Assembly (NCBI GenBank): GCA_964187785.1
Contig: OZ076409.1
Span: forward strand, 10,914,001 to 10,978,000
Origin: Amphiscolops sp. MND2022
Taxonomy: Eukaryota
Direction of reading: 5' to 3'
DNA: 64,000 nucleotides
Of the stretch, positions 14,701 to 38,700 are shown in pieces. The notes under the pieces are model-generated. The model worked only from the letters and a program-made list of their open reading frames with translations. It was not told where the DNA came from and did no database searches. Each line of letters starts with the position of its first letter. The first letter of the stretch is position 1. A program made the translations under genes and the position numbers.

Positions 14701-17700
14701 AACATTTTTTCACTGAAGGATTTTCCCTACCATATTTGGAAATTATGTTCATACCTTGTTCACATGTATTATAATTTTATTGAAACTAGGTTTCGCGTCT
14801 GGGACGCAGGACGTGATACAATTGCGTTTTTACCGGATGTAAGAGATTTTCCTTCGCCATTTTTGCGACGCGCGCGTGGTCACGTGACATAGGGGAAGGT
14901 ATATATACTTGAGGCGTTTCTAGAGTTTTTTTTAAAACTTGAATGCTGTTCTCATTCTCATAACGTTTCGTTAATTAATTTCAAGTTCTGAGATAAAATC
15001 TTTGAAACCTCAATCTCAAAATCAAAATGTCAACAAGAAGCCAGAAAAAGAAAGCAGGGATGAGCGTAGGAGAAGCTGAAGACAACCTACAGGAGAATCT
15101 TTTGAGGGTCAGCAGTGTCGTCATAGGAGAAGAAGTAAGTCCAGAACCTAGTTCTTCGACTAATGTAATTGCGCCCCAAGTAGACCAGTCTCTTGAAAAT
15201 CTAAAAGCTTCTTTGAGGAAAGAAATAACTGACGAAGTAAAAACTCTCTTAGAACAGTCTCAAAGGGAACTCATATTAGCAATAAAGTCTTCGAGTTTGG
15301 AAAACAGACCTAATAACAACGACGAAATCCTAGAGACCCCCATCAGCGTAACTCTGACTCCGGCCAAAACTGTACGTTTCGAAAACGCAAACTCTCCCGT
15401 TAACATTCGTAACACCTGGCTTCTAAATTTCTCAATTTCAATACGGTTCCTCAATTTCAAAGTCCTTTCTAGTCTCTGAGGAAATTAGAGATTGACAGAA
15501 CTAAAAATTCTCATTGAAAATCAGCTGGAGTTTGAACACATATTTTTCATTCCGACTGCAAATGTTTTTCTTTTTGCGAAATCGTTGTGGGTAAATCGAA
15601 ATTCGCGAAGATGGAGTTTTTGAGAAGTATAAGCATTGGATTTGTACGCATTCATTTCGCAAAGCTTGTTTTTCTGGAAAATAAGGAGTATAAGAATTTT
15701 CGACCAAATATGGCAATATGTTTAGAAAGAAATCTGATCCCTGCGTTCGTATACCCAAACGAGCCTTAAGAAAAACGAGTATGAAGCCAATCTGAAATCT
15801 GATTGGACGACGAAATAAGCACTTGCTATGCGGACAGTCACCGAGGCCACGTTCCTGCATTTCGATCACATCCGTTTTCAATACTGCTCAGCTCACCAAT
15901 GCCAGAAATGATTACGTAATCTGTAGATGTCGGCTGTAGATTTACGGCTTTGATTTCTTTCGTCTTTCAGCTTGTTCAGCATACATTCTACCACGTTTCT
16001 AAATAATCAAGTCTCCAAAAGTTCTCTATTTCCCGGAGTCAGGCAATTAAATCAACAAATTCCATGTATTTATATTTTTAATCTCCTTTAGAAATGTGGG
16101 TACGCGGAACTTAAACTACTCAACATAGCCGATCTGGAGAACCCTTCGTGGGCCATGCATGCGGGCAGTGAGTCATTCCTCTCTTTCTCGTACACCATGA
16201 CAAACGAGACGTGTCGTGCTACTGTGCTCAAGGATGTCAGAGTTAGTATCAGCTAGAAAAATTCATTGAATCATTGCATTTTGGATAATAGGTTTTCTCA
16301 TAAAGAGAATATTGGTCGAGAAATATTGGTGTTTTCAACTCTTTTTTTTTGTTAAAGCCTGCTGTTGAGGTTATTTAAAGGAAGAATATCGTGAACAAAT
16401 CAACTGATTTTCACTAGTTCATACGGTGCGAAGAACGCGAGGCTTTTTGAAGATTACCGTGTTTGTTAACCAACCTGTTACTAACATTTAGTAGTGTTAA
16501 TTTGAAGTTTTTCAAACTCTAATTGACCTGAGTGTTTTTGCGATTTTCGAAAAATCATATGAAAAAATTTCGATAATTAATATGTATCTCCACAACTACG
16601 CATACCAGAGAAACAAACTATAGTGCGTTTGAAAGGTCTGGTATTGAGCGTTCATTTTTGTTAGGTGGCCCATTCTTCAGAATTTTAGCTTCTCCAGGAC
16701 TTATATTATAAATTACAACAGGACTTATAATAAAGGACTTGTTGTTGAAGGTTATAGGTTGCTTTTTCTGTATGAGTCATCGACTTTTGATAGACCTGGA
16801 TTTCTCCAAAAACGGAATTTTGAAAAGAATAACCATTTTTTGCAAGAAAAACTGATTTTCTTCAGTTTTGGAGACAATAATTTTTTCTATTAATTGTGCC
16901 ATTCAAATCAATCTAGGTACCAATGGATTGTTGAAAAAACTGTGCTAGAGAATTAGGCTGTTGGCAAAACGAATCAGTTGAAAGAAGGTAGGTTGCTTAA
17001 AAGTGCCGCTAAGCTATTTAGCGTAAAGAGCTTTCGCTGCGCCAAATTTTCATTGAATGAGCCGGTCATTCTCGGAACGCCAGTTTGGATCAAGAGTTAG
17101 CCAGAGAGAAGACACTATATATGAAATATTATGAGTTGAGACGTTAAAATATTGTCCAAAAATCACCAAATTTGGTGTCACTCATGATAATAACTCATGC
17201 TTAAACTTTCAGACCCTTCAATCTTCCGAAATACACATTTTAGATTATAGATTCATTATTTCAATGTTTAACCAATATTCCGAACTTATAAGAATTGGCG
17301 CGTCTTTCAATTACAGCTGTAGACTTACTTCAATATTCCAGCTAACAGTGGCCATCCCCCAAGACCCCCCGAATTACCCCAGCCTGCTGACCTTGAAGAG
17401 GTTCCGTCTCACCCATGCAGGGGACAACTTTCCCGGTCTCCAGAGACAAATTATTTCAGATGTGTTCGAGAAACCTAACCGGTTAGTGTAACTACATTAC
17501 TTCGATCTCTCAATTTAAAAGTATCCGCGCCCTAGTCGAAGTTGCGGCGAAGTTTCACAGTCACCTTGAAAAAATCCCGCTTAATCTTTAGAACATGGAA
17601 AATTCAGGGACCATGCCATCAAAATTTTTGTAAAATAAACCATCTTCTAAAATTTTGCAAAATTACACGGCAACATGGAAAATGCTGCCAGCATTTCAAA

Positions 17701-20700
17701 CTGCTCGTTAAAAAATTCCCTGCAGTCTATAAAACATTTGAAAAAAATCTAAAAACGTACTATCAATACGTACACAGCGGTTTAAGTAATAAATTTTTGA
17801 ATTATATCCAATTCGGTCAAAGTTAGCAAAATAATTCGATTTTTTTCCTACGGTTAAAATAAATACAAAACGGTGATAAGAGTCGTTCATTATTTCACCT
17901 ATTCGAGTTCAATTACAAACCTCAGTGAGCACGAAGGGTCCCCTCTCAAAGAACATATATTTGGTTGATATCTAGAATATTGAAAATTCATTTCAAAAAC
18001 AGACTCTTAGTGCGCCTATTTGTTTTTTTTCCAAAGTTTCTAATAACATTAAAGTTCAACATTCTCTTAGTGACACGCAACTTCTCAACGTAGATCCCTA
18101 TGAACAACTAATTTTTGAGCCTTCAGCGATGCCACGACTTAAGCTGTTCACATGTTGTTTATGGCTGCACTTTGTTAATTGTATCGTATATTTCGTTCAG
18201 GCACACGACTCCGTATTTCGACATCGGCAGTGTGTGGTCCAGTCTAGAGTTCGGGGATGTCGATTACGTGGCAGTTAACAGCGAGGACATGTACGATCGA
18301 CAAATAGTGCTAACAGGTACCCTAAACCTAAAGCTCTTTTCGACACGGCAGTTGTTCACACGGCAGCCATAACGTTCACACCTTTGATATGTGAAAGTTT
18401 CCTGGCTTCGAAGAAACGTTGTCAAATTGAATGACTCACAAGCTGAATTGCAATGCTCAGAGTTGTTTTGAAATTTTTGTTGGCGAATATTTGAAACTTC
18501 GAGAGCCCGACATTTCTATGCGTCCGTTCTTTCATTCACATAGTAGTAAAGGTTCTTCGGTTCCATCATTCAATGATGTACAAGGTATTGATCGTTTCAA
18601 AAAGGTCGCGAGGCTAGGTACCAGTCTTTTAATTAGCCATGCTATCACATCAATTTCTGCAACCATGCGAGGCAAATGCGCATCTGACGACTTTTCAAAA
18701 TGGATATACCGTTTTAAAGATGCAAACCCGGATTCAGCAAACTCAGCAATTGCTCGGATTTTCTCGATTTCCGAGTCAACACTTGGAGGAATTGTGAAGC
18801 GACGTATTGGTTGGTCTGACAGACAGTAAAAAGTTATTTTGGGTCGAAAATCTGTACTCACAAGAAGAATCAAGCGTCAGCTTCTGGGCCGCGTTAATCG
18901 AAACCTAAATCTCCGGCTTTCTGGCCTTCTGCTTACAGCCAGACGACTTGTCTCCATTGCCACAGCACACCGTTTTTTGAAAAATTGCGGCATTCGAAAT
19001 CGTGTGCTTTACGAGACGTTCTTACGAATGCTCAAAAAGGTAGAAGAGTTAACTGGTGCCGTAGACATTTGATTTTGACTTCACAAAAAATATCTTCAGC
19101 GACGAAACTGTTGTTTCCCTTCGGCCTGGTAAGAAATTTGGAAGAATTTACGTTTACAGAAAAGCTGGTCAAACAATTTTACCCGATTTGGTAGCCGCAC
19201 ACCCAAAGATTTACAGCGAGGATCCGTCATATAATGGGGCTGCATGTCGTATTGGGGGGTTCGGTTCCTTGGAAACATTTATTGGTACCATGGATGGCCA
19301 TTATTTTGTGGAGGAAACTTTGGAAAGTTATTTGAGACCGAGTATTGATTTGTTGTACCCATCTGAAGACTGCATTTTCCAACAAGACAATGCCCCACCT
19401 CACACTGCAAAAATCACAACGCAGCGGCTTCCAAACAGCTGTATTTCTGTTCTGGATTGGCCTCCAAATTCTCTAGATCCCTATCGAACATGTGTGGGGA
19501 CATTTGAAGCTAAAACTTTATAGTTCGATGCGTTCGACGCCACAAGAAGTTATGAACACTTTTTTGAGCCTATGGAACAAACTACGAACTTAAAATGCTG
19601 AATGTTTAGTTTCGGCAATCTATAGCCGAATAGATACGATTATTCAGACCAATGGATTGCATCATTAAAAATTACTTGGTTCTAGTTTTGAAACGGTCTG
19701 TAAACTAAAAATAAAACGGAAGGCATCAAAACCTTGAGCTCTCAAAGTTCCAATATTTGTCAGCATACGTTTAAAGTAGCTTCGATCGCGGTTGTCACTC
19801 ATTCAAAATTGCATCTTTTCTTGAAAGCGAAAAAACTTCCGCAAATTGCTATTGGGAACGAAATGACTTAAGAGAGTCTAGACTTTTTCCGATAGTTCGA
19901 ACCAGTTATTTTGTTAGTTGACTTTGATTACGTAACAAGGTTTCAATTCTGAATGATCATCATTTAGAATTGAAACCTTGTTACGTAATCAAAGTCAACT
20001 AACAAAATAACTGGTTCGAACTATTATCAGTATTTTCGGAAATTTTCAGTATTCGGAAATTTTCAGTATTTTTTGTTTTTGATGAATAAATTTCTGAAAA
20101 TACCAGAAGTTTCGGTTTCTGTTTTTCAAACTAGAAGACTGTTTACAAAATAGCGAATTTCACACCATTTCAAGGCCTTTTTATAAAATATTGCACAAAT
20201 TTCAAATCAACAAATTTTATCAAATGCAGCTATTGTGAAACAAAAATTGGACATTATCATGAGTTCGACAAATTTGATGAATCACGAGTATGCTTTAATT
20301 GAACTTAAAATACCGAAACGCACAAAAATTTGCGTATTTAGAACTGTATTAATTGTAAACATTCCTATAAATTTTTGAAAGAAATTTATAGGAATGTTTA
20401 CAATTAATACAATTCTAAAGTCGCAAATTTTTGTGCGTTTCGGTATTTTCGGTTCAATTAAAGTATACTCGTGATTCATCAAATTTGTCGAACTCATGAT
20501 AATGTCCAATTTTTGTTTCACAATAGCTGCATTTGATAAAATTTGTTGATTTGAAATTTGTGCAATATTTTATAAAAAGGCCTTGAACTGGTGTGAAATT
20601 CGCTATTTTGTAAACAGTCTTCTAGTTTGAAAAACAAAAACCGAAACTTCTGGTATTTTCAGAAATTTATTCATCAAAAACAAAAAATACTGCAAATTTC

Positions 20701-23700
20701 CATAGTTGGTGATAATTGATTAGAAGCATTCAACCATGACTTTCTATTCTTGGAACTTTTGGTCGCTAAATTTGAACAGTTAACTAGAAACCATGTTGTA
20801 TCTGAAGTTATTTGCTATCCATTCAAAAATTGTGTACTGATATAAACTTGCTTCGTTGCACCAGCCGAGTTCTACCTTTATGACGACGGATCCATTAACG
20901 CTTCGTGGACCAATGACATTTCGTTTTTCTCGGGCAACTACGACGAAGGTGGTTGGGTCGAATCGGTGCAGCTTCTCATCTACTATGACGTCAACACTAC
21001 CGAACTCATTCTTCCGGACTATGGTGGAGACTTCGTAAGTAAACGTCAAACCAACAAGTTCCTCAATCTTGATGATTTCAAGTCTGCTTTGAAGGTTTCA
21101 ACGAAAGTTTTGACGTGCAAACAAGTCTGACTTTAAATAATACGAAAACTCTAGCTTCAAAATTTTGCTCCTGAGAACGATTTTGCTTAAGCGTTTGCTT
21201 CTGGGATTTTTTGTACAATAACCCATGTTGAGCGCTCCCTGCGAATCTGTACAGATCCTGACAGATCTTGACAGGATTTGTCGAAATTTAACTAGTCGTA
21301 AATAAAAAAGCCGACTTTAAATAAAAAAGAAAACTCTAGCTTCAAAATTTTGCTCCAGAGTTTGCTTCTGGGATATTTTGTACAATAATAGCTCCATTGA
21401 TGATAGGGTACAAAAGGGTAAATACAGTCGACTTGGCCAACGATAACTTTCAAAGCGCGAAGTCTTTTGATGTATTCATCTTACAAAAAAAGTCTCAGGT
21501 GCAAAAGTCACTCAAACTTTGATCAGCAATACAAGGGTATTTTTTGTTTTGAAATCGAAGCAAAATTTAAAATGTTATATCACGTTGTATTTTAAGGATT
21601 TTTGGAACTTTTTGAACGTTAATTAGCAATATCTCAGAAATTACTGGTCGAAAGAGAAACATCCTTAGTTCATTTTTGTAGCCGTGACACCGTTCATAAA
21701 CTTCAAGTTTCATTTTTGACAATATTTCTGAAAATACCTTGTCAAAAAATGATCATCTAAAAACAATCGTAAATTCGTCAAAACAATATTTTTACCGCGT
21801 AAAAATCGAAGATTTCGCATTTTGTGATCATTTTGCGGTGTAAATTTTCAAAACGAGCATTTTCGGGAAAGTGTTAATTTCAAAAGTTCAAGATTTTAAT
21901 CAAAAATACAAAGTTTGTCTCAAATAACTTTTGTTGACTACAACGGTTTTCGAGATATTGTATTAAAAATTTCGAAAAAAAAGTTATCAAAAGTCAAAAA
22001 GTTAGCTGCGAACGTTTGTAGTTTTGTGTGGGTTTAAAACAAAAAAATACACAATAATTCTGATTGAAATTTGGGAAGGTTTTCCACCAATGACATTTGT
22101 GTTTATTGATTATGTACAATTTTATTGCAATTTGAGATTTGAAATCAAGTGTAGTTATTTTTTCGGTACCCTAGAGTACTATGCAATCATCGCTGCTTCA
22201 ATGACTAGGTTTAAGACCTACACGTTTTGGGTCGACCCAGCTTAATTGACTCATCATTTTCAATTGAGGATTAAAAGTCAACGTCCAGCTGTAAGAGAAA
22301 TGCTTCTGAGAAAAGTAACAAATCTCAATGAATGACAGCTGCGATCAAACTGGTTTTGAAATGTCCGTTGACAATCATTTGAGAACACGAAATTGTTTGT
22401 GCGTTCCGTTTTTTTGTTCACCTAGTAGTGTATTGTAGAAACATCTTAATTAATGATCAAGTTCTGATGGAACAGCCTGAAAGCTTTTTCATTAACAGAC
22501 TTTACACTAATCACCCATGAAAAATCACAAACGAAAGATTTTGAAAACTCCCCAGAGCCTATATCCAAAAATACAAAAACCTCAGCTTTTATAACTTTTT
22601 TTCGAAATCCAACAGAGGATGCTTGATAACCCAAACGACGAGTTGCTGCAACTGGAAGTGCAGTACCCGTACCCGTTTGTGGGTGAGGAGTTTGCGTGGA
22701 ACTTGGAGAAGCAGGTCAAGGCATGGAGTGTCTCCCTCTACATATCTTCGCACCAAGACTTCAACGAGATGGCTCTGGCGGTCTTCGTCACTGGCATGGA
22801 AGCCTTTGCCAACTACGAGAGTGTGGAAATTATCCCAGGCAGGAACATCTACCTGCACCCGATGAACAGTTCTTTCTCCTTCACTATAACCGAGGCTGAC
22901 CTTCTCGGAGAAGTAAGACTTCTTTTTATCAAATTTGACAACTCCTGTTTTATATATTTTTAAACGCCCCGCTCGAAGTTCAAAAAAGGGTTAAGTTTTT
23001 TAAATATGCAAAAGGACACTATAATTGAAATTTTATCAAAAATTTCAAGACGAAAAATTTTCCATTTGAAAGATCTCACAATGACGGAAATTGTCGAAGG
23101 GACCCTTTGGGTTTTTTGAAAATCCAGATTGTTTCAAAAAATCAAAAAATGACCCTTCAGTAACGTCCGGTTTTGCAAATGCCTGAAAAAGTTTCGCGGT
23201 GAAGCAGGGACTCGAACCTGCGACCGCTAGATTCCCACTAAACCGATTAACCTCTGTACCAAAAAGTGGTACAAACAGGGTGAGCGAAAACAAAAGAAAC
23301 AAGCCGGGAACGGCCCAAGTCGGCGCCGTATCTAAGGCTCAATAAGACTCGAAAACCACTTTTTCTACAACTGGAGACAACAAAAGCTCTCAAAAAACTA
23401 AAAAATGAGAAAAAAAATTTTCCGAAATTTTTTCGAAATATTTTTGTAGTTTCCGGTATGTCGCATAGTGCCGAAAAATGTAAAAGCGGGACCCTTTGGG
23501 ATTTTTTGAACATCCATTCTGTTGCAAAATATCAAAAATTGATGGGAGGAACAATAAAAAAAATTCGGAAAAAAATCAGTCTCACAGTACCGAAAAAAGG
23601 AGGAAAGTCTCATAGTGTCGAGAAAAGTGGACCCTTCTGCTTTGGAATGGCTTTTTATCTCATGTTAGAGGCTTTGGATGCGTTGAAAATGAAGTACTAA

Positions 23701-26700
23701 GTACATATGGTAAAGTTGGTAAATGTGCAATTGTTACGACATGCTATCGGGTCGTTTTGAGTAGAACTTATTCTCACTGATTTTGTAGGAGTATAGAAAC
23801 CTCTAGTTTCCTCCTCTACCTCTTCTTCAGTGTTTTCTCTAGTAATCCTTCTTGTTTCAGGTTTAAGGAGTTTCAACATCTCCTTCTGAGATTCAATAAG
23901 AAGATTTTTAATCTCTGACGTTATTTCTTCCTTTAATGAAGTTCTCAAGCTTTCAAAGAGACTATTCTCAATCCGGGGGGATTTAGGTCTAGAAGGCCCC
24001 GCTACTTCATCGTCTTGATTCAAAGAACAAGGATTTCCTACTACTATGGGTGAAATCAAGCCTTCACTTACGTTCTCACTGGTGCTTTGCTGATCGTTCC
24101 TTCTTTTTTGGCTTCTTGTTGTTGACATTTTGTAGAAAAGTTTGATCTTGAAGAATTGAATTTCTTTCAAAGATTTTTCTGACAAAGTAGAACAAGGCAA
24201 GAGTGAAATTGAAAATTCAACTGAATTGTACAATTGCAAAAGACTGAGTCCCTCAATCATCAAATCCTATCATATTTATACCCTCCCAGCATCATTTGAT
24301 CACGAACAAAGCCCTAATTTTCCTTGAACAATTAGTCATTTCCTGTATTTTCGATGAAAAAAGCATTTTGTTCCCAATTTTACGTCGACATTTCGTCAAT
24401 TTTTGAGACACGATGATCTTCATTTAGTATTAGTCATCAAATTTGATCATATCATTTCATCTCGGCGTCCTTTTGCTTCCTCCCAAGCAGGAAGTAGATA
24501 TTACTTCAGTCTGTCAAACCGGAAATGCTTCCCTGTTTTACTGCTTTGGTTCGCGGGAAATTGACGCTGAGATGACGCTGACGTGAACAAAAAATACCTG
24601 ATTTTGAATTTCGCTTTGATAAAAATGCTATGACTAATTTCAAAATAGGAACATTTGACCGATGCTAGGACGATATTTTATGAATTTGGACTCAATCCTA
24701 TGCTAGAGATGAGAATGAAATCATGATATGAAAATAATATTTGTTAGCAACTTTGTCATGTCGTGTCAAACACGACAAAATTTACAAAATTAACAGTAAC
24801 GTTTGTTAAATAGCAACATCAACACAACGTAAATAACTGGACAGCAACGGATGTACTAATATAGGAAGACATGATCACAATCACAAGTACAGTGTTCAAC
24901 GTTGTAGAGTACAAAAATGCAAAATATATGAAAAATACATTTCTGGTACACAATATGCTTTTTAGTAGGAGAGAATAAACTGTGACTTCCTCATTAACCT
25001 ACCGCGAAATCTTGTAATAAAATGATTCATGCACTGAAATTTCTTTATTGTTAAGGATACATGATTGTTACTTAACGTGGGGTTGAAATTATCCTATATG
25101 TGCCAAAACGCATTCTAAATTGGGACCTTAAACCATGGAAAATCAGCAATACATTCGTTATACTATTTGCAACAGTCTGCAATTTTCTCTCTTTAGGAAA
25201 TAACGGCATTTGCGCGATGAAAACCTGACTAAATTCAGCAAATTCATTCACTTTATTCAATTTCATAAACTTGTCAACGTCATGTTGACGAGTTTTCTTG
25301 GCAGAGTAGAGATTTTGACTAGTTTGACGCAATGCTGACGAGTATTTTAGAAATGAGTCTCTCGCTAGCTACCGGAGCAGTGACGTCACAATGGCGGTAA
25401 ATTGGAATGATTTCTTGGTACGCTTATGCGAGGCAGTGACGTCAATTGGTATGCCTTCAAACTTGTCTGCGTCTTACTGACGACAAATATACATGTATTC
25501 TTGTTTCTTTCGCCGCTTTGTTTACTCAGCGCAGTATTGACGTCCTAAATCACTTTAATTGCTGTTCAAAAGAGTAATTAAGCTGTCTTTCTAAGAAAAG
25601 GCTTAACTACCACGGTGTGTTGTCTCACTGTAATTTCCTGTTTTAGGTCCGAATGAAATGTAATTTTTCGGGATTAGTTTTGATGTATTTTCATTTAGAT
25701 TAGCTTATGGTCTCTTTATTCTTGGGATAGTTTTATTCTAATTTTCAGGTTGTGAATGTTTCATTTGTCGTGGTTGACTCGTCCAGCCAAACATGCGTGA
25801 AATCATTTTTGGATTATTTTGCTTCCTTATTTCATTTCCGCCCAAATTTGCGCGCGGTAAATGTGTATTTTACATTTCCGGTACTGTTTTATTCAATTTT
25901 GCGAGAGCATGAAAAATTTAGAACGCGTTCACTAGTTTTATTTGGAATTTTTGTTAGGCAAAAGTATTATTGCATTTCAAGTCACAGTTTATTTAAATTT
26001 AGTTAGAGTTCGAGTTAATAACCAAAATACCTCTTCGTGAGTCTTGCGGTGCACCCATGTCCACGCCCAAAACCAACTCTCCTGCATCCGCAATCCAGTC
26101 CGGGAGCGGACTGTGACAGGGCCACTGTCATGGGACGAACGGCTTTACCGGGTTGATAGAAGTCGAACCCCTGGCGCAGGTGATTTTCGTGCGTGTAGTT
26201 TTCCTTGGCTTCGTCTAGCGTTAATTTCGGCTCCTCCAGATCATTTAGAGGACTAGTTGTCAACAGATTTATTCTTCTCAGTGGACCAGGGGGCGTGACA
26301 AAGTATGAAGAGGCGTCTTCTTGCTGCACCTTCTCCAGATATTCGGCTACTTTGCTACTTGTTACTGATTCGGTTTGTACAGCTGGGGCTTCTACTATGA
26401 ATATGTCCGAAGACAAGCTTTCATCAGGGCTTTCCGGGGAGTCAGCAATAACTTCTTCGGTCGACTCAGAGTGGGGGTATTGTCCCGATTCTACAGTTTC
26501 AAAACTAGAGAACGACTCACTCAGCTTCATTTACTTGCATTCTGTTTCTAGTGAATTTACCGATAGGTCGAGGCATTCTTCTTCGTCTGCGTTCGCCTCT
26601 GCTGATGAGTTTAGAATTTCGATGATCAATCCCGGATAGGCCCTGCTGTCACTAGGTATTGGGGTGGACGATCTTGTTATTTCGCCCTCCTCCTCGCTTG

Positions 26701-29700
26701 ATGACGAGATGTCAATTAGTTCGTAGATATCTAACAAGTTGTTCATTCTGCGGCGAAATTTCTTGGCTGCTGTTTTTCGAGTTTGATTGTTTCACAATGA
26801 ATTTCAGGGTTGATTAGGATTAGGGAAATTATTGGAAAAAACCCTTCATTTTGATTGGCTGTTCAATCATTTTAATCCTTTTTAATCTTCAGGTGTTGGC
26901 GATATGTCGACATCGAGTTTTATTGGTTGTTGGTTAAATTAATTTGCTCGGCTGAGCTTGTCAACGTTATGCTGACGTCATTGCGCTAGCTTAGCTAACT
27001 TTGATTTTTGTCACCGTTTTGATGACGTCATTTTAGGATATCGGATTAATTTCTTAACCCAGATAACCTTTTTGTCAACGTTATGCCGACGTCAATTTCG
27101 CTAGCTTAGCTAACTTTTGATTTTGTCACCGTTATGATGACGTCATTTTAGGATATCGGATTAATTTCTTAACCCAGATAACCTTTTTGTCAACGTTATG
27201 CCGACGTCAATTTCGCTAGCTTAGCTAACTTTTGCTTTTGTCACCGTTATGATGACGTCAATTTGGTTGTTGTTTTCAGATTCCTGCTATTTGTGATGAA
27301 TCAAGAAACTCCTCGGTTTCGTCTTGACACCGGCGCTCAGAGCGGCAATGAGACCCAGTTTGTCTTTTCTGAGGGAGACATTTATCCGAGTGATGCGGAC
27401 GTTGTTCGTCGGCCTGCAACAGGTGAGTTTGTTGTTCCCCATTCCTTTAAGCTTTCCGTGAATTAATGCTATTTACAGATTGGCCTTTTTCTGTTTGCAT
27501 CTTTCACAGCTTAGATTTTCTGACGCGTCGTTATGGGATGTTTATTTGTTGCCAGAACCGACGTTTTCTTCTCCTTTGGCTGGGGCTTCCAACACTGCGC
27601 TCAAAGCTTCTCTTCCTGGTGATCTCTCTGGAGTTTCTCTTGTGCCTCTTGCTGATTCGACGCACCATGCTACTGATTCTCCAGTTGATGTTCCTGCTCC
27701 TGCCTCTCCCGATTTGCATGGCTCTAGTGATTCTGACGTTCCCTTGGCTGACATCATCAAGGTTGCTGCTCCCACTGTTGTTGCGGTCGCTCACGAAGGT
27801 GAGGGGGCTCCCCCCCTCTCAGAGAGGGAGCAGGGAGTAGCCATACTACTATTTCTCCGCGGTTTTCGTCATTCTTGGTACAAGAAGTAGCATCCGGCGG
27901 AGCTGAAGCAGTGTCGTCGAAGAATAAACGTGGTGAGTTGGTCTGTTGATGACTTTTAAATCTTTATGTGTGTACGTGCGAGTGAGAGAGAAAGGAAAAA
28001 ATGAAGGGAATTGTATCGTTGTGGTTGTCTCAGCTGATGCGAGGAAGTTTCTTTCTGTTTTAGTGCAGCTTATTGTCCCTGAGGGTGGTGGGACTGATGA
28101 CCAGTCGGCTTCGAAGTCTTCTTTGAAGGATAGGACGGGTTATGCTGTACCGACTGTGCGATTCAGTTTGTTGGACGCAGACGAGACGTGTGAGGTGGTT
28201 ACTGCGTTGCCTGGCATGTCTGTGCAATCTGGTGAGGTGTTGAGGGCTGGCATTTCAGATGCAGAGAATCACACGTTGGACCCTTTCGTTGCTCGTGAGT
28301 ATATTCTTGTATTTGGTGTATCAACTAATTGGAGCGATTCGTCTTTTCTGTTTGTTTCCACAGTTTTGTCTCGTGGTGCTTAGTTATGTGATAGTTGGTT
28401 TATTGCAGGTTTTGAAGAATTGATCAATCGGATGGAGACGACCTTGGAAAGTGCTGATCGCAGTCGGAAACGTGTGTATAGCCCGAAATCATCTTCGACG
28501 GGATATGGTCGTTGGAAATCCCATCTATGAGCTTTTCGTTAGCGGCTCAAGTACTGGCTCCAGCAAGCTGTTTCACTGCACGATTTGTCAGCGGGACGTC
28601 TCCATGGAGTCGCGGGGTGCTGCCGAGTTTAGTCGGCACTTTTTTGGGAAACGTCACTGGCAACTCGATGTCACTTATCGTGTGCAGAATGGTTTGCCGG
28701 TATACAATCGCCTCATGGATCCCATGGTTCTAAGTGATGCACAGTTGGAAGAGTACCGCAATCGTCCTAGTAAAGGAAAAGATGAGGGATTCAGTTTCCC
28801 CGAAGATTTGCTTCCTGCTTGTGTTCAGCCAGATTCGAGCGTGCCCCTCATGACGATGGTTAATTGCTTGATCGAACTGTTGCGATTTGGTGGTAGTTAT
28901 ACCCTTTTGCGGAAGTTGTGGGGATGTTTCCGTGCAACTCTTGGACCCGAGAACCCTCTGTACAGCATACAGTGGAGCCGACCGGAGTCATTGGTTGGTA
29001 TTTTTGTTTTGGTTTTGATTCAGATGGGGGTTTGTTCCTCTTTTTTTTCTTTTGCTGTTTTTTCCTTTCTTTTCCCCTTTTTTTTTGTTTAAATATAGTG
29101 GGCATTCGTCGTTATGTTTTAGTCGTTGATCTGTGGAGCCCTCTTCCCTCGAGTGTTGCGCGCTCTCGTTGCTCGGATTAGTGCCTTTCGAGAATACAGT
29201 GTCTTCTTTGCGGAGGTGGATGGTTTGCACAAGTGCTTTGTTCAAACTTTTGATGACCACACGTTGATGAGCGTCTGTGTGAGGGTGGAGTCAGTTGGGC
29301 AACGTGTTCCTGAAGCTGAGTTAGCTGGACTATCTCGCGTTATTGATAGTACTGCCTCATGTCAGATGCCGTTGTCCTGTCATGGTGGTAGTCCGACCTT
29401 GTTGCGGGTTTTCAGCGATACTCGAGTGGATGGACGTGAGTTCCTCATGTATCGGGAGTTCGACGCTGAAGTATTTTTGTATTGCTTCCGACTTGCTCAT
29501 CAGGAAGTGTTCGGTGGCCTAGAGACTACGACGATGGTCGATTATCTCATGCTTCGGTTGCGAGGTGCTCTGCAGGAGTCCTGGTGTGAGAGTGTGCCTA
29601 ACCTTCGTCGCTGCATCGTTGCTGGCCGTGTCGACTTCGTAGATTTGCAAGCTGTCGTTACTGACTTGATTGCCGTGTGGTCCTCGGTGCAGGATTTTGT

Positions 29701-32700
29701 CAGACACACTGGTCCTCGACATTTCAAGACTGGAGCTGGCCGAGTAAGAAATTCTTTGTCTTTCTTTTCTTTTTTTTTCTCATAGTCGGGATTTTCCATG
29801 TAGTCTTCATTGCTCATGTGATTGTGAACGGGTCTTTAGTAGTGTTGGCTGTATGTTGCAGATGCGTGGCACTGATTGGCATGTCTACTCTGAGTCTTCT
29901 GGCGAATTGCGTCTGGGCCTGCTCTTGCATATCCTCGAACTCCGTGAGCATGATTCTGGTGTCTAGTTTTCTTGGGTTTTCATGTAGCGTGTTTGTTATG
30001 TGTTATTTTCTTTGTGCACGGAGTGGGTGGGGGAAACACTGTTGTTTTTTTGAGGCTTCGAGCGAGCGAAGCGAAGCGACGAAGTCTCTATTGTTCCGCG
30101 TTTACTAGCGTTTTGGTTTTTTTTTCGCGTGACATACCCTCTGCATTTGTATTAATTGAAGGCTATTTTCTCAGAGCCTATTTTTCCGCGACCATCCAAA
30201 CTTTCCAAAAAGAAACGCAACTTGATGCTCTTTCTAACCGTGTAAAAACTCTCCGAAAATTTTCCACCGGCGCGATTTTATTAGCTTCGAAAGCGCGAAA
30301 TTTTCGAAAATTTTTAGGGTTTTTGTCGATTTTGCTATTTTTCTTTTCGCAAACCACAGCGAATTGGCCCGATGTAGGTACTAACCGACCTAAAACGATG
30401 TTTTCTTTAATTTGGTGAAAGTTTTTTTATCCTAGAATTATTGGGCTTTGCGAAAATGACCATTAAAAATAGGAAAAATTTTCGGTTTTTTTGCGTAAAA
30501 ATTTTCTCAACCTATTTTCAAGTAGCAATCAGTTCTAATCCAAGCAGTGGTGTTTCTACTCGATAACAGGTCTGCTTAGCTGCCCAAAGTTAGAAATTGG
30601 AAAGTCACAACGTTTACGTCGGACAGATGGAGACAAAAAAGTTTTCAAATTTTTTGAATTTTTGATAAATTGCTCTCTTTATTCAATTTTGTAAAAGTTT
30701 TGGCCTATTTTCTCGGAGCCTAATACTTCGAGACCATCCAAAAACTCAACAAATTGTTGGATCTGAATTTGTTGGTGAAGATTTAAATGTTGTTGGATTT
30801 TCGGGCAGTTCATTGTATATTATACAAATTGTGCTTTACTACGAATCTTGAAATAAATGAATATTTGATCCTTCAATTTTTAAATATACATTTTCCAAAC
30901 TAATCTTAGGAAGGAGTGAAATAGACGAAGTTACCGGATCGGTCTTGTAAAAATGCATAGATTGCGGTATGATTACCCCTAGTAACCCTCCTACTGTCTT
31001 ATTTGCACGGCTGTTGTTAAAAATGCTGACTTCATCCTTGGAAGGTTTTTATTTATTTATACTGCTAGTAGAAAATGTAAAAATGCTCGAAGACCTATCG
31101 GCAATGTACATTGAATCATATACTCCATAATTGCTCATTGATTTGCTTTGTCTCATGCCTGTAAAATTTTCGGTGAATAGTTTTTTTGTCCATTTTTGAT
31201 GTCGGAAACCAAAGTTTTTTTCAGACCTCTCGATGTATGGGTTTTCGAGAGTGAGATCATATTGGACCACTGGAGTACATACTCACCGTTAGTTATTGAT
31301 GATGTGGTTGTTTGAAGCGTAAAACCGCGAAATTTCCGTTCTTAACGTATTCTATCCAGTGAATATCTGCACAGAAGGTATTATGCATTACCGCAATATT
31401 CCTGAGAGATTTGATGTCATATGCAACGATTAAATCAAGACAACACTAAGTTATATTCACACCTCGCTGTGCAATGATATTCAACTACGTTGTATTGAAA
31501 ACAAAAATGACTTCGGATCTTTCCGTGATTTTGCCCCATTCGCAAATTTTAACAGGTTATTCATCCTCTGGAATACGTTTCCAACGGTGCCCACTGATGC
31601 TGGAAGGTTGTTTGATGCACAATTCAGCTAATTTTTAGAACTGAAAGTATACTTGCTAGTGATGGCACATATCAACCGTCCTATTGATAACTAGGGCAGC
31701 CCTTCCTTTTATATAGTGGTAAAGGCCGAAAAAGTTAAGCTTCATAGGATTAATACCCGCAATTCTTTTCAATTTCATTGTATTCTGAGCATTCTCGTAC
31801 CGTATATAACCTTAGCTATTCGTCATAGCTAATAACTTGGTAATATGGTTCAAATGCACATGATGATAGTCAATTATGGCTGCGGGACCTGTCGCTCGAA
31901 GCCGTGCGCAAATTCCTTTGCGCCTATGTTTTTTTTTCTCCATGTTGGTTATTGGTCGGTATATTGTGTTTCAGACTCGTGTTCGTTCAAGAAACAGTTG
32001 GCTTGTCGCCCTGACTACGGGTTTCATGGTTATATGGAAGTTTGCCAATTTGTCTACTGTTTGTTGTCGCGCAGTCGCAAGCTCGGTTCTCTTCCCAGTC
32101 TGGATGCATGCGAGGAGTATATGGACCCGTCAAAACTGAAAGCTTATGAGAATGTTGCTGCTGCCGATTTTCTGTGTAACCATGAGTTTGGCGCTGTTCT
32201 TCGTCGTCATAAAAGTGGAGAATCTCAAGTTTTCCGGGGCCTCTGTGGCAAATTCATGGATCGTCTTGTCACTGTCATTTTGTCGCAGCAGTCTGTTACT
32301 GGAGATCTTCCGCAAGGTATTTACTCATTCTGTCCGGAGTTGCTACTGGAGGGGGATGACCATCATATGTTATTGTTGTTTCGCAAGTTGATCCGTGTGT
32401 TAGAGCGGAGTGGGGTCAAATCTGCATTGGAGTCAAAGTCAGCTACCGAAGAATATTCGACGTTTGTTGTTGATGCTCGAGCGCGACACGTCAGTAGTGA
32501 AGGGATTGCTGAGGCTATCCAAGATGTTCGCCATCATCTGCTATCCGATTACAGTTTTTTGGCTCGCAAGTCATTGTGTCGAGTGTTCAAACTGTGCTGT
32601 TTGGTTGTCTCAAAGCCTCGGATGACATTTCCAGCAGTAGACTTAGATCGCAGTGGTTGCGCAGTTCCTGAACTTGTTGTCACGACGTGTATTCAGGGCG

Positions 32701-35700
32701 TTCAGAGTTGTGTTGTGTCTTCGGAGTTCAAGCTGGGGTCATTTTTTACAAAGTTTACAATTGGTCAAGTTCGGAAGTCAATTGTCAGTGCTAGTTCCTT
32801 TATGTTATGCTCTGATTTTGACCCTTGGGACGGCTTGTGTAGTGGTGGTCAGTCTGCGTTTGTTGGTCGTTATCGTCGTCTATTCAATGACCGTATCAGT
32901 CGCAAAAGGAGCAACAGTTGTGAATCACCCTGTGATGTGGGTGATCCTGGTCACAGTGTGGAAAGTGGTGGTGAAGGTGGATGTTTCTCACAATCGGAAA
33001 GTCCGGCAGCTTCATCTGTTTCCGCACCCCCATGCTCTTCGTCGGGGGGATCTAGTTCTTTTCGCCCTAGTAAGACGAAGGTGTACGGAAGTATTGCCTC
33101 ATTGCTTGGTCGTAAGAAGAGTGTTGAGGGGACTGGAGAACATGCATCAAAGAAGAGTAAGAAGAAGTCGGGGCAGTCTTCGAGTAAGGGAATTGCTGGG
33201 GGTTCAGAGAGAAAATGAGTTTTCTTTATCTTTGTGTACGCTGTAGTATGAATTGTAGTTGTTGTTTTATTTCTTTGTTGTTATCCTTTGCAATATATTA
33301 TTGAATACAAACTGAAGTATGACATTTTGAGTGATAAAAGGAAAAATACATTTATTCAGGTCGTAGTATGCCTGTAAATTGAAAATTGTCAGGTCGGTTC
33401 GGCCTGGACTCCTGAATTTATCTTTTCATTTTTTAGTGAGTCGTAGTCATTGCGTCAAGTCGTCTAAAGTCAGGGTCAGCATTAGGTTTAGGATTAGGTC
33501 GTAGATTATATTTCGCTGTTTTTCTCGGATTATATCCAACGACTGTAGGCGGAGATTTTGGGGGAATAGGTGGACTTTGAATGGGTGGGGGGCGACGTAT
33601 ATATGGGTTATCCCCTACGTCTGTAGTGAGATTCGAAAAGTCCGGTGACGGCGGTATCATTTCATCTGTATTGTCAGTTAATTTTTGTGGCATCGTGTTG
33701 TCGTCTGTATTTGTCACCTCTTGTATTTCTGTTCTTTGTCCAGTCTCCGTATTTTTTGATGTGTCGAGTTCGTCGATTTGTTTTCCGAAATCCATTTCCC
33801 ACGAGACTGCATACCATTCATTGTGTGATACTTTAACGTCTGGATCCGGTAGGTATTCGTTTGACCGTACTGTGACGTCGGGTATGCGTTGATCTGTCAC
33901 ATAAGGTCGTATTCTGATTCGATGCAGTGTTTGTGTATATCTCGTGCCAATCTTTCGTATTGTGTAGTTATTATTGGAAAGCACTTTGATCACTATGTAC
34001 GGTCCTGTCCAAATGCAATCTTGAAACGCAAACTTTGTCGATTGATTGTCGGCTTTCGGATTGAGTATATAGCAATAGTCGTTGATTTTTAGTGGGGCGG
34101 CTGATGCCTTGCGATCATAGTATTTTTTGTATTTGAGGTAGGATAGCATGATGTTGTCCTTTGCTGTCGCTCGTACCTCGTCTATTTGTTTTTGGATTTG
34201 CTCCGCTATGTCCGAATTGGGTGTTGTTTTCCATTTTGGTTTGATTCCCAGTTTTAGGTCAAGGACATTGTAGGGTATTCGTCCGTGGAATACTGTAGAT
34301 GGTTCGCAGCCCAGAGTCTCATGGTATGTTGTATTGTTGTTCATTACGGCTATTTGGACGTATTTATGCCACATCGAACGTCTTTCGCCCGTGGAAATTT
34401 TTAGTGCAGTTTTGATTGACGCATGTGTTCTTTCCAAAATTCCGATCGTTTGTGCATGTTTCGTGGACGCGTGGCTGATTTGGATCTCGAGTATCTGGGC
34501 TATTTCTGTAACGACTTCTGATCGAAATTGTGAGCCTTTGTCTGATAAGATTAATGTTGGCAAGTATGCGTGTCTTGTCATGACGTCGACAATACATCGT
34601 CCGATTGTTTTCGCTGTGACATTCTGCGTTGGGTATGCAAATCGGTAACGTGAAAATACGTCGATCATCGTAACGATGTTCTGGTATCCCACAGAGTTTG
34701 GCAAATTTGGTAATATGTCAATTTCAAGAATGTCCTCCGGGCCGAGGACGTGTTCTGTATTGTTGATCATTTTTGGTCTGATTTGGCTATTGTTAATCCG
34801 TTTGTATTTGATACAGTCTTCACATTGCATTACCCATTGTCTGATTCTTTTTGCTAGACCGGGGTAATAGTACTTTGATCGGCATTCTTGAATCATTTTT
34901 GTAATTCCTGGGTGTTTTCGCATTTGTCCATGTATTGTTTTCAGAAGTTCTGTAACCAAGTGTTCAGGGATTAGTATTTGGTGGTGGGTGACTTGGCCAC
35001 ATTCGCCGTAATATTTGCGCATTAATATTCCGTCTTTGACAATTAGTCTGTTTTCGTGGATGAGGAGACGTTTTGCTGTCGGATCAGTTTGTAAGAGATG
35101 TTTGTCATATTCTTCACAAATCAATTTCTTTTTGAGTGCTTTGAAAACTAGGTTTGAATCTTGTTCGGCTCTGATGCGCGCGTCTTCTTTTATTGCCCCG
35201 AAGGTGTAGGAAGCTTTGTTTATTGGGATTGGGTTAGTTTCTTTGATAGCTAGTTTAAGTTTTGTCGTCTCTTCGTCGCGCGCATTTTGTCTTGCTTGAT
35301 CTTTCTGCAGGAGTATATCTTCTTCGGTTTCAATATTTTCATCTGGAAGAAAGAAAAGTTGTTCTTCATCTGCGACGTCAGTAGACTGTAGGTTTACTTG
35401 GATTGGGCGAATTGTGATGTCCTCTCTGATTTTTAATTCGACTCTCTCCTTGGGGTTGAGATCAATTCTCGATAGGAAATCAGCTGCTGTATTCTGTGTA
35501 CCAGCCACGTGCATTATGTGGAAATTGAATTGTAGTACATAATCGCACGCGTTCCACAAGGTAGGCGGTATGGCTTTTGTTTGGAAAAACCGCGTTACTG
35601 ATCTGTTGTCTGTCATCACTAAGGTCGGTAGAGTTGTTTCCCACAGGATATGGCTGTATTCTAGGAAGGCGTGGTATATTGCTAAAAATTCCTTGCAATA

Positions 35701-38700
35701 AATTGACATTTTTAGCTGTGCTGGAGAGAATACTTTCGATCCGAATGCGACTGGCGCAAATGTCTTCTTTTTTGAATTGAGTTTTTTGTCGTTGTCTTCT
35801 TCGATCATCAACGCATAGCCCGAGGCTCGGAAACTGGCGTCCGTCATTAGGATGTATTGTCGTCCTGTGATTGGTTGTTTGAGAGCCAATCCACAGGCTT
35901 GCGCCAATGCTGCGTTGATCGCTTTGTAGTGATCGAGTAGTTCTTCTGTGACCTTGATTTGCTTGTCTGCTTTCAATAGTTCGTAAAATCCGAGCAGTTT
36001 TTCGGACAATCGCGGGATGTAGTTGCGATAATAGTTGACAAAACCAATGTACCTCTGTACTTGCTTCTTTGATTTTGGAAATCTCACATTGGCTAAAAAT
36101 TTCTGTATCTTGTGGTCTTGGGGGGCGATCCCTTGTGGGGTGATCGTCCTTCCAAGGAATTCGACTTCAGTCATTTCAAAATGGCATTTGTCAATGGATA
36201 GTTTGAGTCCTGCTTGTCTGATGCATTCGAAGACGGCTCGGATGTTTCGTATCAGCTGCGTCACGGAGTTGGCGGCTATGCCGATGTCGTCCACATATTG
36301 TGCACATTGGTCAGCTTTGATTACTTTATCCAAATATTCCCTCATGAAACTTGAAAATGCCGATAATGCTCTGCTTAGTCCTTGTGCCAGCCATTTGTAT
36401 GCGAAGGTTCTGCTTGCAAAGTTGAATGCTAGCATCTCGATGGATCGTTGGTCTGCCATTTGTAGACAGTGGTATGCTTGGGAGCAATCTAATTTGCAGA
36501 ACAACTTTTTCCCAGCTAAGTGTTGGGCTGCGTCCGACAGGGTGCTGACTGGGTGGTTGTTGGTGATGTAATCGTCTGAAATTAGTGCGTTTATTTTTCG
36601 TAGGTCGACGAGTAGACGCAGTTTGCCATTTGGCTTCCTTTGTGCGAAAATTGGACTTGCATATTTCGAGAATGGTAGGGTCGTTATTATGCCGTACCTA
36701 TGCATTAGTGCTAATTCGACTGTTAGATCCTCTTTCAGGTTAATTGGTACCGGCAAGCTTTGTGTGTAAATTGGACGCTCGTCTTTCGGAGTTAATTTGA
36801 CTTTGAAGCTATTATTGATTCCGATGTCAAGGCGATGTCGGGCAAAGATATCGTTGTATTCGACTATTGTTTGCTCGAGTTGCTTCCTGTCATTGCCTTC
36901 GATTTGAGAACCTTCCCACTGGAACATGTCCAGGAAATGCTTTCGTGATTCTGGATCTTTGGTTGGGTCTAGTTTTTCTTTTTGAATGAGTTCACGGATT
37001 TCTATCAGTATCCTTCGTTGAATTGGTGTATGTTCTTCTTCGTTTCTTGGGTTCTCGGGTGTGGGGAACCAGAAATTTTCACCGTTTTGTTCATTTTCGC
37101 TGGATTTCATGAGTTCATTCACATACATATGTGTGTCATCTGGATCTTGTAGAGTGGTTAGCGTTGCGACGTCTATGGGTCGTATCTGTTTGGTGTCTTC
37201 TGGCCGCAGGATTTGCAATTCTGCCAATTTGGTGTGATTTTTTAAGGTGTGAGGGAAATCTGTCAAGTTGGCTATTCGTAAGTTGATTCGTTTGTTGTGA
37301 GCTGTGGCTAGTGCTGGTGCGATGATGATGGTTGCTGTTTCGTCAAACTGTGGTAGCGGTTGTACTGCTCCTGTGATGTCAATTGCATTAGTAGTTATGA
37401 CTATTGCGTTTACGGTTGTTGTTTGTTGTGGAGGCAGTGTCTGGTTCCCTTCAGTCATGATTTGGAGTGGTTTGGGGTTACAGTTTTTCTTTTCATCTGT
37501 CATGGCTAATGTCATTTCGACATGGGGGAAGGTGATGGTCCCATTGGCTGTATCTATCACTGCTTGGTGATTCCTCATGAAGTTCAGTCCTATTATTGGG
37601 AAGGACGTTTTTGAGAGTATCACGAAGGTGTCCGTGAAGGTATACGTTCCTATGTTGAATTGTATATCGGCTGTGGCTATTGGTTGCTCCAGTTGAGCAT
37701 TTGCGCATTCGATTTTGAAAGGAGGTTGTGGATACTCTTTTATGACACAGTTGTCGCTGTTCATTTTGATTGCATTGTAGTCCGACCAGGACATGGCATT
37801 GATGAACGCACCTGAGTCGACAAGTCCATCCATTGTTATTTCGCCAAATTCTAGTGGCAAGTACAGCATTCTCCTCCTGCTCTTGAGGACTATAGTCGAG
37901 TGGAGAGGTAAGTACGTCTCTCCGTCTTTTTCAGTAACATACTCTTTAATAGAGTTGAGAGATGCGGGGAAATCTTCTGGGAAGATAGGTACTTGGGTGG
38001 AGCCGTGAGTATCTTCCTTTGTTAGTGGTGACGGTGGTTGGTCTTCATGGGCGTTTTCAGTTTGTTCTATTTGGGTTGCGGTGGATTGTGTTGTGTTGGT
38101 GGGGGATGGCTGTATGAGATTTGGGTGTTGTTTATGGTCGTCTCCATGGTCCTCATCTGGTGTTTGCTCTTTTTCGGTTTGTATGAGGGGTCTTCGTATG
38201 GAGGCAAGTGCCTGAGGTCTCAGCCAGTCCTCTGTTGGAGTTCCATCGCATTCTATTGTTTTATCTTTTGTGTAAGTCGTAGGGGGATCGTTCGTTAAAT
38301 ACGCCCTCGCGTCTACTGTTTCCCCGAAGCGCAGGCGCGGCGTAATTAGTTTTTTGAATCAGTGACAGCGTTGGCCTTCGTTTGCTGGACGGGAACGTCC
38401 TTTTTTGATTCTGGATTGTTGTGACGCTTAGGTCGTGGATCATTGGCAGAGTTGTCTCCGTACCAACAATCTTCCGTTTTGTGGGGTTTGCCACATGTTT
38501 CGCATTTGAGCGGTTTGCCTGCACTAGAGTTAGTTTGACTATTGTTTTTTCTGGTTTGCATCCATTTATCTCTCTTCATTTTTCTGCATTCTGCCTTATA
38601 GTGTCCAAATTTGTTGCAGTAGAAGCAATATCCTTTTTTGACATTTTGCGTTGTGTTGTCGACTTGTTTGGGCTCAGTTTTTGCTGGGGCTGGTTCTACC

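Follow-up and report, generated by a model that had tools for sequence, protein, structure and literature searches.

The nef gene of human and simian immunodeficiency viruses (HIV and SIV) and the sag gene of mouse mammary tumour virus (MMTV) overlap U3 of the 3′ long terminal repeat (LTR). Nef is N-myristoylated and has a folded core, and Sag is a membrane protein. Extra open reading frames (ORFs) are also known in LTR retrotransposons; a mechanism has been given for almost none of them, and the sense ones are usually filed as env-like. In Ty3/gypsy elements of plants and fungi, additional ORFs (aORFs) of either orientation, sense or antisense, lie between pol and the 3′ LTR (Grande gene23, Retand, RIRE2, Boty), and the products are described as nuclear proteins of unknown function, found in most copies (PMC7264820, PMC11963269). 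The sense aORFs described in the review are Env-like (PMC7264820). Foamy viruses have the accessory ORFs tas and bel2 (Bet) next to the 3′ LTR, with an internal promoter, and the 3′ end of feline foamy virus bel2 reaches U3 (PMC6950176). The C. elegans element Cer1 encodes CERV, a nuclear export factor of 517 aa. CERV arises by splicing from gag and combines three folded domains with a candidate nuclear localization signal (NLS), a Cys-rich region and phosphoregulation (PMC10309623). LTR elements of bdelloid rotifers have family-specific non-Env ORF3s, which are captured enzymes (GDSL, DEDDy) or transmembrane (TM)/coiled-coil proteins (PMC5408684). Here we describe the third ORF, ORF3, of a Ty3/gypsy LTR retrotransposon of Amphiscolops sp. 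MND2022. It lies in a stretch of 64,000 nucleotides (nt) of contig OZ076409.1 (assembly GCA_964187785.1, positions 10,914,001 to 10,978,000), hereafter the window.

ORF3 has the orientation of gag and pol and starts 7 kb downstream of pol, head to head with an antisense gene. A preliminary description of this DNA had reported an ORF in the env position that crosses the 3′ LTR boundary. This was confirmed: the last 33 codons and the stop of ORF3 are the first 104 nt of the 3′ LTR (Table 1). No hydrophobic segment was found in six family members, in which the best 19-residue Kyte-Doolittle mean ranged from 0.36 to 0.80. Therefore ORF3 is not Env, as had been argued earlier from the lack of a signal peptide or TM segment.

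A sequence search with ORF3, in which the stop was replaced by X, found 150 related clusters, and a profile search with the family found 244. The matches listed from both searches are unnamed ENA proteins without Pfam domains. When the profile was run against 1.84 billion representatives, 124 matched at E≤0.001; a named match among these that was examined, P0297, is a bacterial tandem-repeat protein (19 stretches) and was treated as compositional. Pfam gave no match for ORF3 and only scattered weak matches among 36 members. PDB sequences gave 0 matches at E≤10, the ESM Atlas gave no usable match for the C-terminal 72 aa, and none of the 77 and 47 pattern matches in metagenome and viral contigs, respectively, was confirmed. 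Family records are predicted ORFs.

ORF3 is not closed in most copies, an outcome that had been named beforehand as evidence against the interpretation. Among the best 120 of the 150 clusters, 67 have a full-length representative that keeps the tail in frame, and these 67 account for 895 of the 993 member sequences; clusters were counted by representative, and members of full-length clusters can themselves be truncated. For a motif census we examined 138 candidates and kept 74 full-length representatives, which form 25 groups at 75% identity. The other 64 fell outside the range of 220 to 280 aa or had the tail out of frame. Tail-only matches (P0271, P0278, P0279, P0281, P0286, P0293) were left out of the counts, and they look like chance ORFs running from flanking DNA into LTR starts. 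Across the 25 groups, down to 32% identity, the frame stays open over ~200 upstream codons with in-frame indels. The full-length members at ~32% identity are P0231 and P0242. We regard ORF3 as an accessory gene, conserved, protein-coding and not Env, that is carried by a group of Gypsy LTR retrotransposons, and its products as a real, previously unnamed accessory protein family. In a separate observation, P0077, P0095 and P0039 are chimeras that join the N-terminal part of one subfamily to that of a different one at the tail, a sign that recombination may take place close to the LTR junction.

The C-terminal tail recurs at the start of a solo LTR of a second family in the window, and both peptides quoted in the preliminary description were correct as written. 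The tail of P0242 equals that of the solo LTR except for one residue. As DNA, the element LTR and the solo LTR can be aligned only over the first ~70 nt and in short gag stretches near the LTR end, which agrees with the earlier remark that the rest of U3 is not alignable. Both families have identical first 23 nt, free of silent changes, and this stretch looks like a cis signal. Since these nucleotides are constrained at the DNA level, the SQSAPGL part of the tail is no evidence for a protein. The hairpin in them was considered as a conserved structure and rejected: none of 7 frameshifted read-throughs, assigned by sequence to other subfamilies, compensates its central pair.

The next 45 nt (15 codons) have 2 identical, 9 synonymous and 4 non-synonymous codons between the element and the solo LTR. 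Their 19 mismatches are distributed 6/3/10 over the codon positions. When 19 mismatches were placed at random, 0 of 200,000 trials retained 11 of the 15 residues (P<5e-6), and the other two sense frames have zero silent changes. This synonymous bias means that the Cys/His tail is selected as a protein. An alternative is that conservation is purely at the DNA level, as had been raised beforehand for an integrase attachment site; here the sequence would serve integrase attachment and plus-strand priming, and the ORF would be incidental. This alternative can point to the identical first 23 nt and to the first five tail codons, whose wobble positions are largely fixed in the 7 frameshifted read-throughs. 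It can also argue that the junction must hold a priming signal because no polypurine tract (PPT) precedes it. However, it accounts neither for the silent changes of the next 45 nt, found in the ORF3 frame alone among the sense frames, nor for 200 upstream codons kept open with in-frame indels. We regard it as largely refuted and extremely unlikely. The nef/sag-like position that had been proposed for ORF3 therefore holds in the sense that a real, selected, non-Env accessory ORF overlaps U3.

The window copy of ORF3 is broken by one in-frame TAA, which is followed directly by ATG. Nonsense mutation, readthrough and stop-restart had all been offered for it. The nearest cluster, P0002 (96% identity to the window ORF3, 161 members), is open at this codon in 15 of the 15 members listed, all of 243 aa, and 12 of 28 aligned rows have I or L in place of the Met that follows the TAA position. 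Thus the TAA is a nonsense mutation and not a recoding signal, and readthrough and stop-restart were rejected. Another representative, P0004, also starts at this internal Met and may carry the same break. The product of the window copy would end at residue 71, in the basic NLS-like region, and other copies of the element could provide the protein in trans.

The N-terminal two thirds of the ORF3 protein are acidic, with 19–23% Ser/Thr up to a [ST]PxG motif, whereas the C-terminal tail is basic. The N-terminal part carries a net charge of −8 to −27, and the tail one of +5 to +6. An AlphaFold model from 36 sequences has a mean predicted local distance difference test score (pLDDT) of 52, a predicted template modelling score of 0.14 and one helix, and the protein is predicted to be disordered except for this helix.

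Within the acidic region we found conserved motifs resembling a SUMO-interacting motif (SIM) and an NLS, which are absent from the preliminary description. A reversed form of the SIM, with Leu, exists. The SIM is described as a core of hydrophobic residues that follows the consensus [V/I]x[V/I][V/I], flanked by acidic residues or by Ser phosphorylated by CK2 (PMC4476178). To judge conservation, motif rates in the 74 census members were compared with rates in shuffled sequences. A core like that of phospho-SIM proteins of the PML/PIAS type, built of V, I or L, [VIL][VIL]D[VIL], is present at the N terminus in 62 of 74 (shuffled 0.07), and in 60 of 74 (0.13) it is followed by an acidic/Ser tail. 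The basic NLS-like motif is the best-kept motif outside the tail (72 of 74, shuffled 0.09). [ST]PxG occurs in 65 of 74 (0.15), LNDL in 70 of 74 (0.02) and S[ST]P in 65 of 74 (0.36). A pattern like the LC3-interacting region (LIR), [DE][DE][FY]xx[LIV], is found in 51 of 74 (0.07). A strict Fbw7-type degron was rejected as a family feature, as it occurs in only 27 of 74 (0.04) and is absent from the subfamily of the window ORF3.

By their divergence P0242 and P0231 are a fair test of motif conservation. The NLS-like motif, [ST]PxG, LNDL and the full set of four Cys/His residues are retained in these two, and neither matches the acidic-tailed SIM pattern. Judged by what these two keep or lose, nuclear targeting of the ORF3 protein is well supported by motif and SUMO binding is moderately supported.

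Upstream of ORF3 lies a candidate divergent internal promoter with four TGACGTCA palindromes of the cAMP response element (CRE) type, compared with a shuffled mean of 0.005. The four sites are not independent, since they are located in copies of a tandem repeat. In 24 of 24 homologues that extend further upstream, the conserved start Met is preceded by K, E, Q or R, an indirect sign that it stands in a purine-rich start context and not behind a polypyrimidine splice acceptor. It is likely, from these features, that ORF3 is transcribed from an internal CRE-rich promoter.

The antisense gene on the other side of this region has a C2H2-like CxxC...H...H motif at 28578-28660. Its last exon has 112 related clusters and a confident all-helical model (pLDDT 78), for which Foldseek gave no match and the best VIA Z was 5.9, on generic helices. 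The ESM Atlas gave no usable match for an antisense exon. A by-eye likeness to a catalytically dead hAT transposase was not supported, with a Pfam match in only 1 of 86 members (E=0.019), no PDB match and no fold match.

Taken together, we tentatively favour, at somewhat less than even confidence, the reading that ORF3 encodes a nuclear accessory protein, disordered and expressed from an internal promoter, that engages SUMO or SUMOylated chromatin factors to the benefit of element transcription. The internal promoter would drive an ORF3 transcript, and the protein would be imported into the nucleus. There its phospho-SIM-like motifs would bind SUMO or SUMOylated chromatin factors, its basic Cys/His tail would probably dock it on nucleic acid or a partner, and kinases would tune it through the Ser-rich and [ST]P sites. 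As a co-activator or anti-silencing decoy it would probably raise transcription of its own element. This proposal draws on the report that piRNA (PIWI-interacting RNA)-guided transposon silencing in Drosophila requires SUMO (10.1101/533091).

Several points weigh against this reading. ORF3 may help the element to escape silencing, an idea that comes by analogy alone. Short motifs are frequent in acidic, Ser-rich disordered proteins, and the motif counts are non-independent because the rows are relatives. Neither divergent member carries the acidic-tailed SIM: in P0242 VIDL is retained but followed by a less acidic tail, and the core of P0231 is degenerate and lacks Asp. The second SIM-like motif is found in only 44 of 74 (shuffled 0.24), and neither divergent member has it at this place. 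No full TGACGTCA occurs in the solo LTR, which has only 2 AATAAA sites (P=0.26), so that the AATAAA excess described below is not shared. Finally, the most invariant block of ORF3 is the basic Gly/His/Cys tail, which SUMO binding does not explain.

The tail holds a CxC-x8-HxC motif. In the census the first Cys is kept in 70 of 74 members, the second in 71, the His in 73 and the last Cys in 58; all four are present in 52 of 74. CxC-x8-H occurs in 66, CxC in 67 and G[RK]xHG in 71. The last Cys is absent from 15 of the 67 full-length representatives listed, which stand for 262 of 895 member sequences. Eleven representatives without it form one branch with 87/98 support, which contains clusters of 173, 40 and 22 members, in a tree built on the part of ORF3 preceding the tail. 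Two more rows outside the branch carry its tail and look chimeric, and three others are scattered. The ancestral-looking pattern is thus one of four candidate ligands, and a successful lineage lives without the fourth.

These counts bear on the preliminary model of a zinc-binding transactivator with Tas/Tat-like logic, in which the tail folds around zinc and binds the LTR or the internal promoter while the acidic region serves as an activation domain. The four ligands of the 52 members extend to both members at 32% identity, and between the two window families the codons for Cys and His show silent differences. There is an acidic region with an amphipathic helix, and an internal promoter together with an ORF reaching U3 recalls the foamy viruses (PMC6950176). 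However, a CCHC-type zinc finger requires all four ligands to be invariant, and the fourth is lost in a whole clade. AlphaFold leaves the tail unfolded (pLDDT below 50), which is not decisive in a metal-free model, and Pfam and PDB gave no zinc-finger match. The proposed zinc site is weakened: its first three ligands are nearly always kept, the last much less often. The tail may bind metal with the fourth Cys dispensable; the transactivator model as a whole is unlikely.

The same basic tail would suit a post-transcriptional factor like Rev or CERV, which binds the 18-kb genomic RNA and aids its export or read-through of early poly(A) sites. Besides the Gly/Arg/aromatic residues and positive charge of the tail, this model is favoured by the NLS-like motif, by many S/T-P sites, and by a cluster of 5 AATAAA within 300 nt after the ORF3 stop (P=0.001), early in U3 of the ORF3-bearing element family. 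The Gypsy element Cer1 employs a phosphorylated, Cys-rich nuclear protein in this way (PMC10309623). Compared with CERV, ORF3 has neither the length, nor the splicing from gag, nor the three folded domains, and the AATAAA excess is absent from the solo LTR. We consider this model improbable.

A Nef-like membrane adaptor would use the same CxC, next to basic and aromatic residues, not for metal but as an acylation site that anchors a disordered, motif-rich arm to membranes, and the LIR-like pattern would bind LC3/Atg8. The pair of Cys is better kept than the dispensable fourth, and the LIR-like pattern is far above its shuffled rate. However, this pattern is absent from P0002, the window copy and both divergent members, acylation needs no invariant His, and the best-kept motif outside the tail is the NLS-like one. 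This adaptor role is very unlikely. The nuclear, SUMO-engaging protein remains the reading we prefer.

A broader version of it concerns the whole 3′ region. In this version the element would carry a cassette like that of complex retroviruses, in which a divergent CRE promoter drives ORF3 as a multi-SIM, NLS-bearing SUMO decoy or adaptor together with a zinc-finger antisense protein, both countering SUMO-dependent chromatin silencing, and in which ORF3 coding has replaced the PPT with a non-canonical plus-strand priming site. We think this combination unlikely. No PPT was found before the 3′ LTR: its expected site, 26119-26138 (minus), has only 8 purines of 20 and consists of ORF3 codons. The nearest run of at least 11 purines is ~570 nt from the junction. 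Other subfamilies, as read from frameshifted proteins, have only a short purine-rich stretch with a junction of the R-G-Y-G-G-C-C-C type. We also observed that the candidate primer-binding region (39376-39388, minus) is reverse-complementary over 8 nt to 26112-26120 (minus), which spans the 3′ LTR junction. This could be a signal for end-to-end pairing, or chance.

Table 1. Coordinates of the element, ORF3 and associated features in the window
Feature	Position	Strand	Remarks
Ty3/gypsy LTR retrotransposon hosting ORF3		minus	pol order, LTRs and target-site duplication all present
5′ LTR	41775-39389	minus	99.7% identity to 3′ LTR
gag	39923-38346	minus	open; start within 5′ LTR
pol (protease, reverse transcriptase, RNase H, integrase)	38358-33433	minus	open; domain order as in Ty3/gypsy
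Antisense, apparently multi-exon gene	27298-33218	plus	inside element; putative exon joins
Candidate divergent internal promoter	26747-27297	.	551 bp; 115-bp tandem repeats, 4 TGACGTCA palindromes, 3 CCAAT words
ORF3	26746-26015	minus	243 codons + stop, sense to gag-pol; one in-frame TAA, broken in window copy
Phospho-SIM-like motif	26719-26684	minus	residues 10-21, LIDI then Ser/Glu run; putative function
Basic NLS-like motif region	26539-26522	minus	72/74 members
Premature TAA	26533-26531	minus	codon 72, then directly ATG
Second SIM-like motif, DIFIVE	26407-26390	minus	residues 114-119
Single predicted helix	26365-26315	minus	residues 128-144; pLDDT ~74 at residues 131-140
[ST]PxG ... LNDL block	26296-26237	minus	residues 151-170
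3′ LTR	26118-23732	minus	2387 bp; TATA-like box 24280 and gag ATG 24128 within
LTR first 23 nt	26118-26096	minus	identical in both window families; nt 6-23 form a 7-bp hairpin
CxC-x8-HxC motif with G[RK]xHG	26092-26051	minus	inside U3
Solo LTR, second family	13393-15414	plus	2022 bp; own 5-bp target-site duplication on both sides
ORF3 tail in solo LTR	13395-13490	plus	gag start of solo LTR at 15027

The element that hosts ORF3 has LTRs with TG..CA ends and is flanked by a 5-bp target-site duplication. Only 7 differences separate its two LTRs over 2388 aligned bases, which marks the insertion as young. The target is itself a repeat (23298-23729, 41776-41918), and an uninterrupted copy of this repeat at 12279-12845 confirms the insertion ends. 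The gag and pol frames overlap by 13 nt (38346-38358, minus), consistent with a ribosomal frameshift. A TGG-starting sequence stands directly after the 5′ LTR in the candidate primer-binding region, and the window has no tRNA gene for matching. In both window families gag starts inside the LTR, with ~130 codons in R/U5 (24128-23732 and 39785-39389, minus; 15027-15414, plus), and the gag N-termini of the two families can be aligned as protein. With the ORF3 tail, each LTR therefore has coding sequence at both ends. Rfam gave no match in 23000-42000.

Elsewhere in the window, a second, decayed LTR element (51641-59249, plus) has 194-bp LTRs and internal duplications (51808-53419 = 54939-56552) and is unrelated to ORF3. 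Inverted arrays of a 16-bp unit at 5597-5760 and 6077-6303, and a 320-bp near-perfect palindrome at 20055-20701, are probably non-autonomous DNA transposons.

The ORF3 family is large, high-copy and still amplifying, and has no named relative. Among the entries listed from the open-access literature, neither this family nor any SIM protein encoded by a retrotransposon was described; the search did not extend to subscription papers or to repeat databases. Since SUMO is required for piRNA-guided silencing in Drosophila, such a protein, if the reading is true, would be a direct counter-defence against SUMO-dependent piRNA silencing. The motifs permit sharp tests of SUMO binding, nuclear import and zinc binding, and natural CCHC and CCHG tails can be compared. 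The missing PPT raises a testable question on plus-strand priming.

Compared with nef and sag, ORF3 shares the plan of a sense accessory ORF running into U3, and the likeness is positional only: it has no Gly2, TM segment, predicted fold or sequence match. Like the plant and fungal elements with aORFs, the present element has a long pol-to-LTR region, tandem repeats and an antisense gene with a putative promoter of its own. Unlike those aORFs, ORF3 is sense, non-Env and TM-free, faces the antisense gene, enters U3 and covers the PPT site, and it has no sequence match to them. Like tas and bel2, it adjoins the 3′ LTR, reaches U3 and would have an internal promoter. In contrast, foamy viruses are retroviruses with env, their Bet is spliced and antagonises APOBEC3, and no homology was detected between ORF3 and their accessory proteins. 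ORF3 and CERV are both non-Env accessory proteins from Gypsy elements of invertebrates, ORF3 being putatively nuclear like CERV, with a candidate NLS, Cys residues and possible control by phosphorylation. ORF3 differs in being a separate, disordered ORF of 243 aa located at the 3′ end, which has a conserved start of its own and no folded domain. Like the rotifer ORF3s it is a family-specific non-Env third ORF, but it has no enzyme fold. By these comparisons ORF3 matches none of the known accessory genes in sequence, and it resembles them in position and logic.

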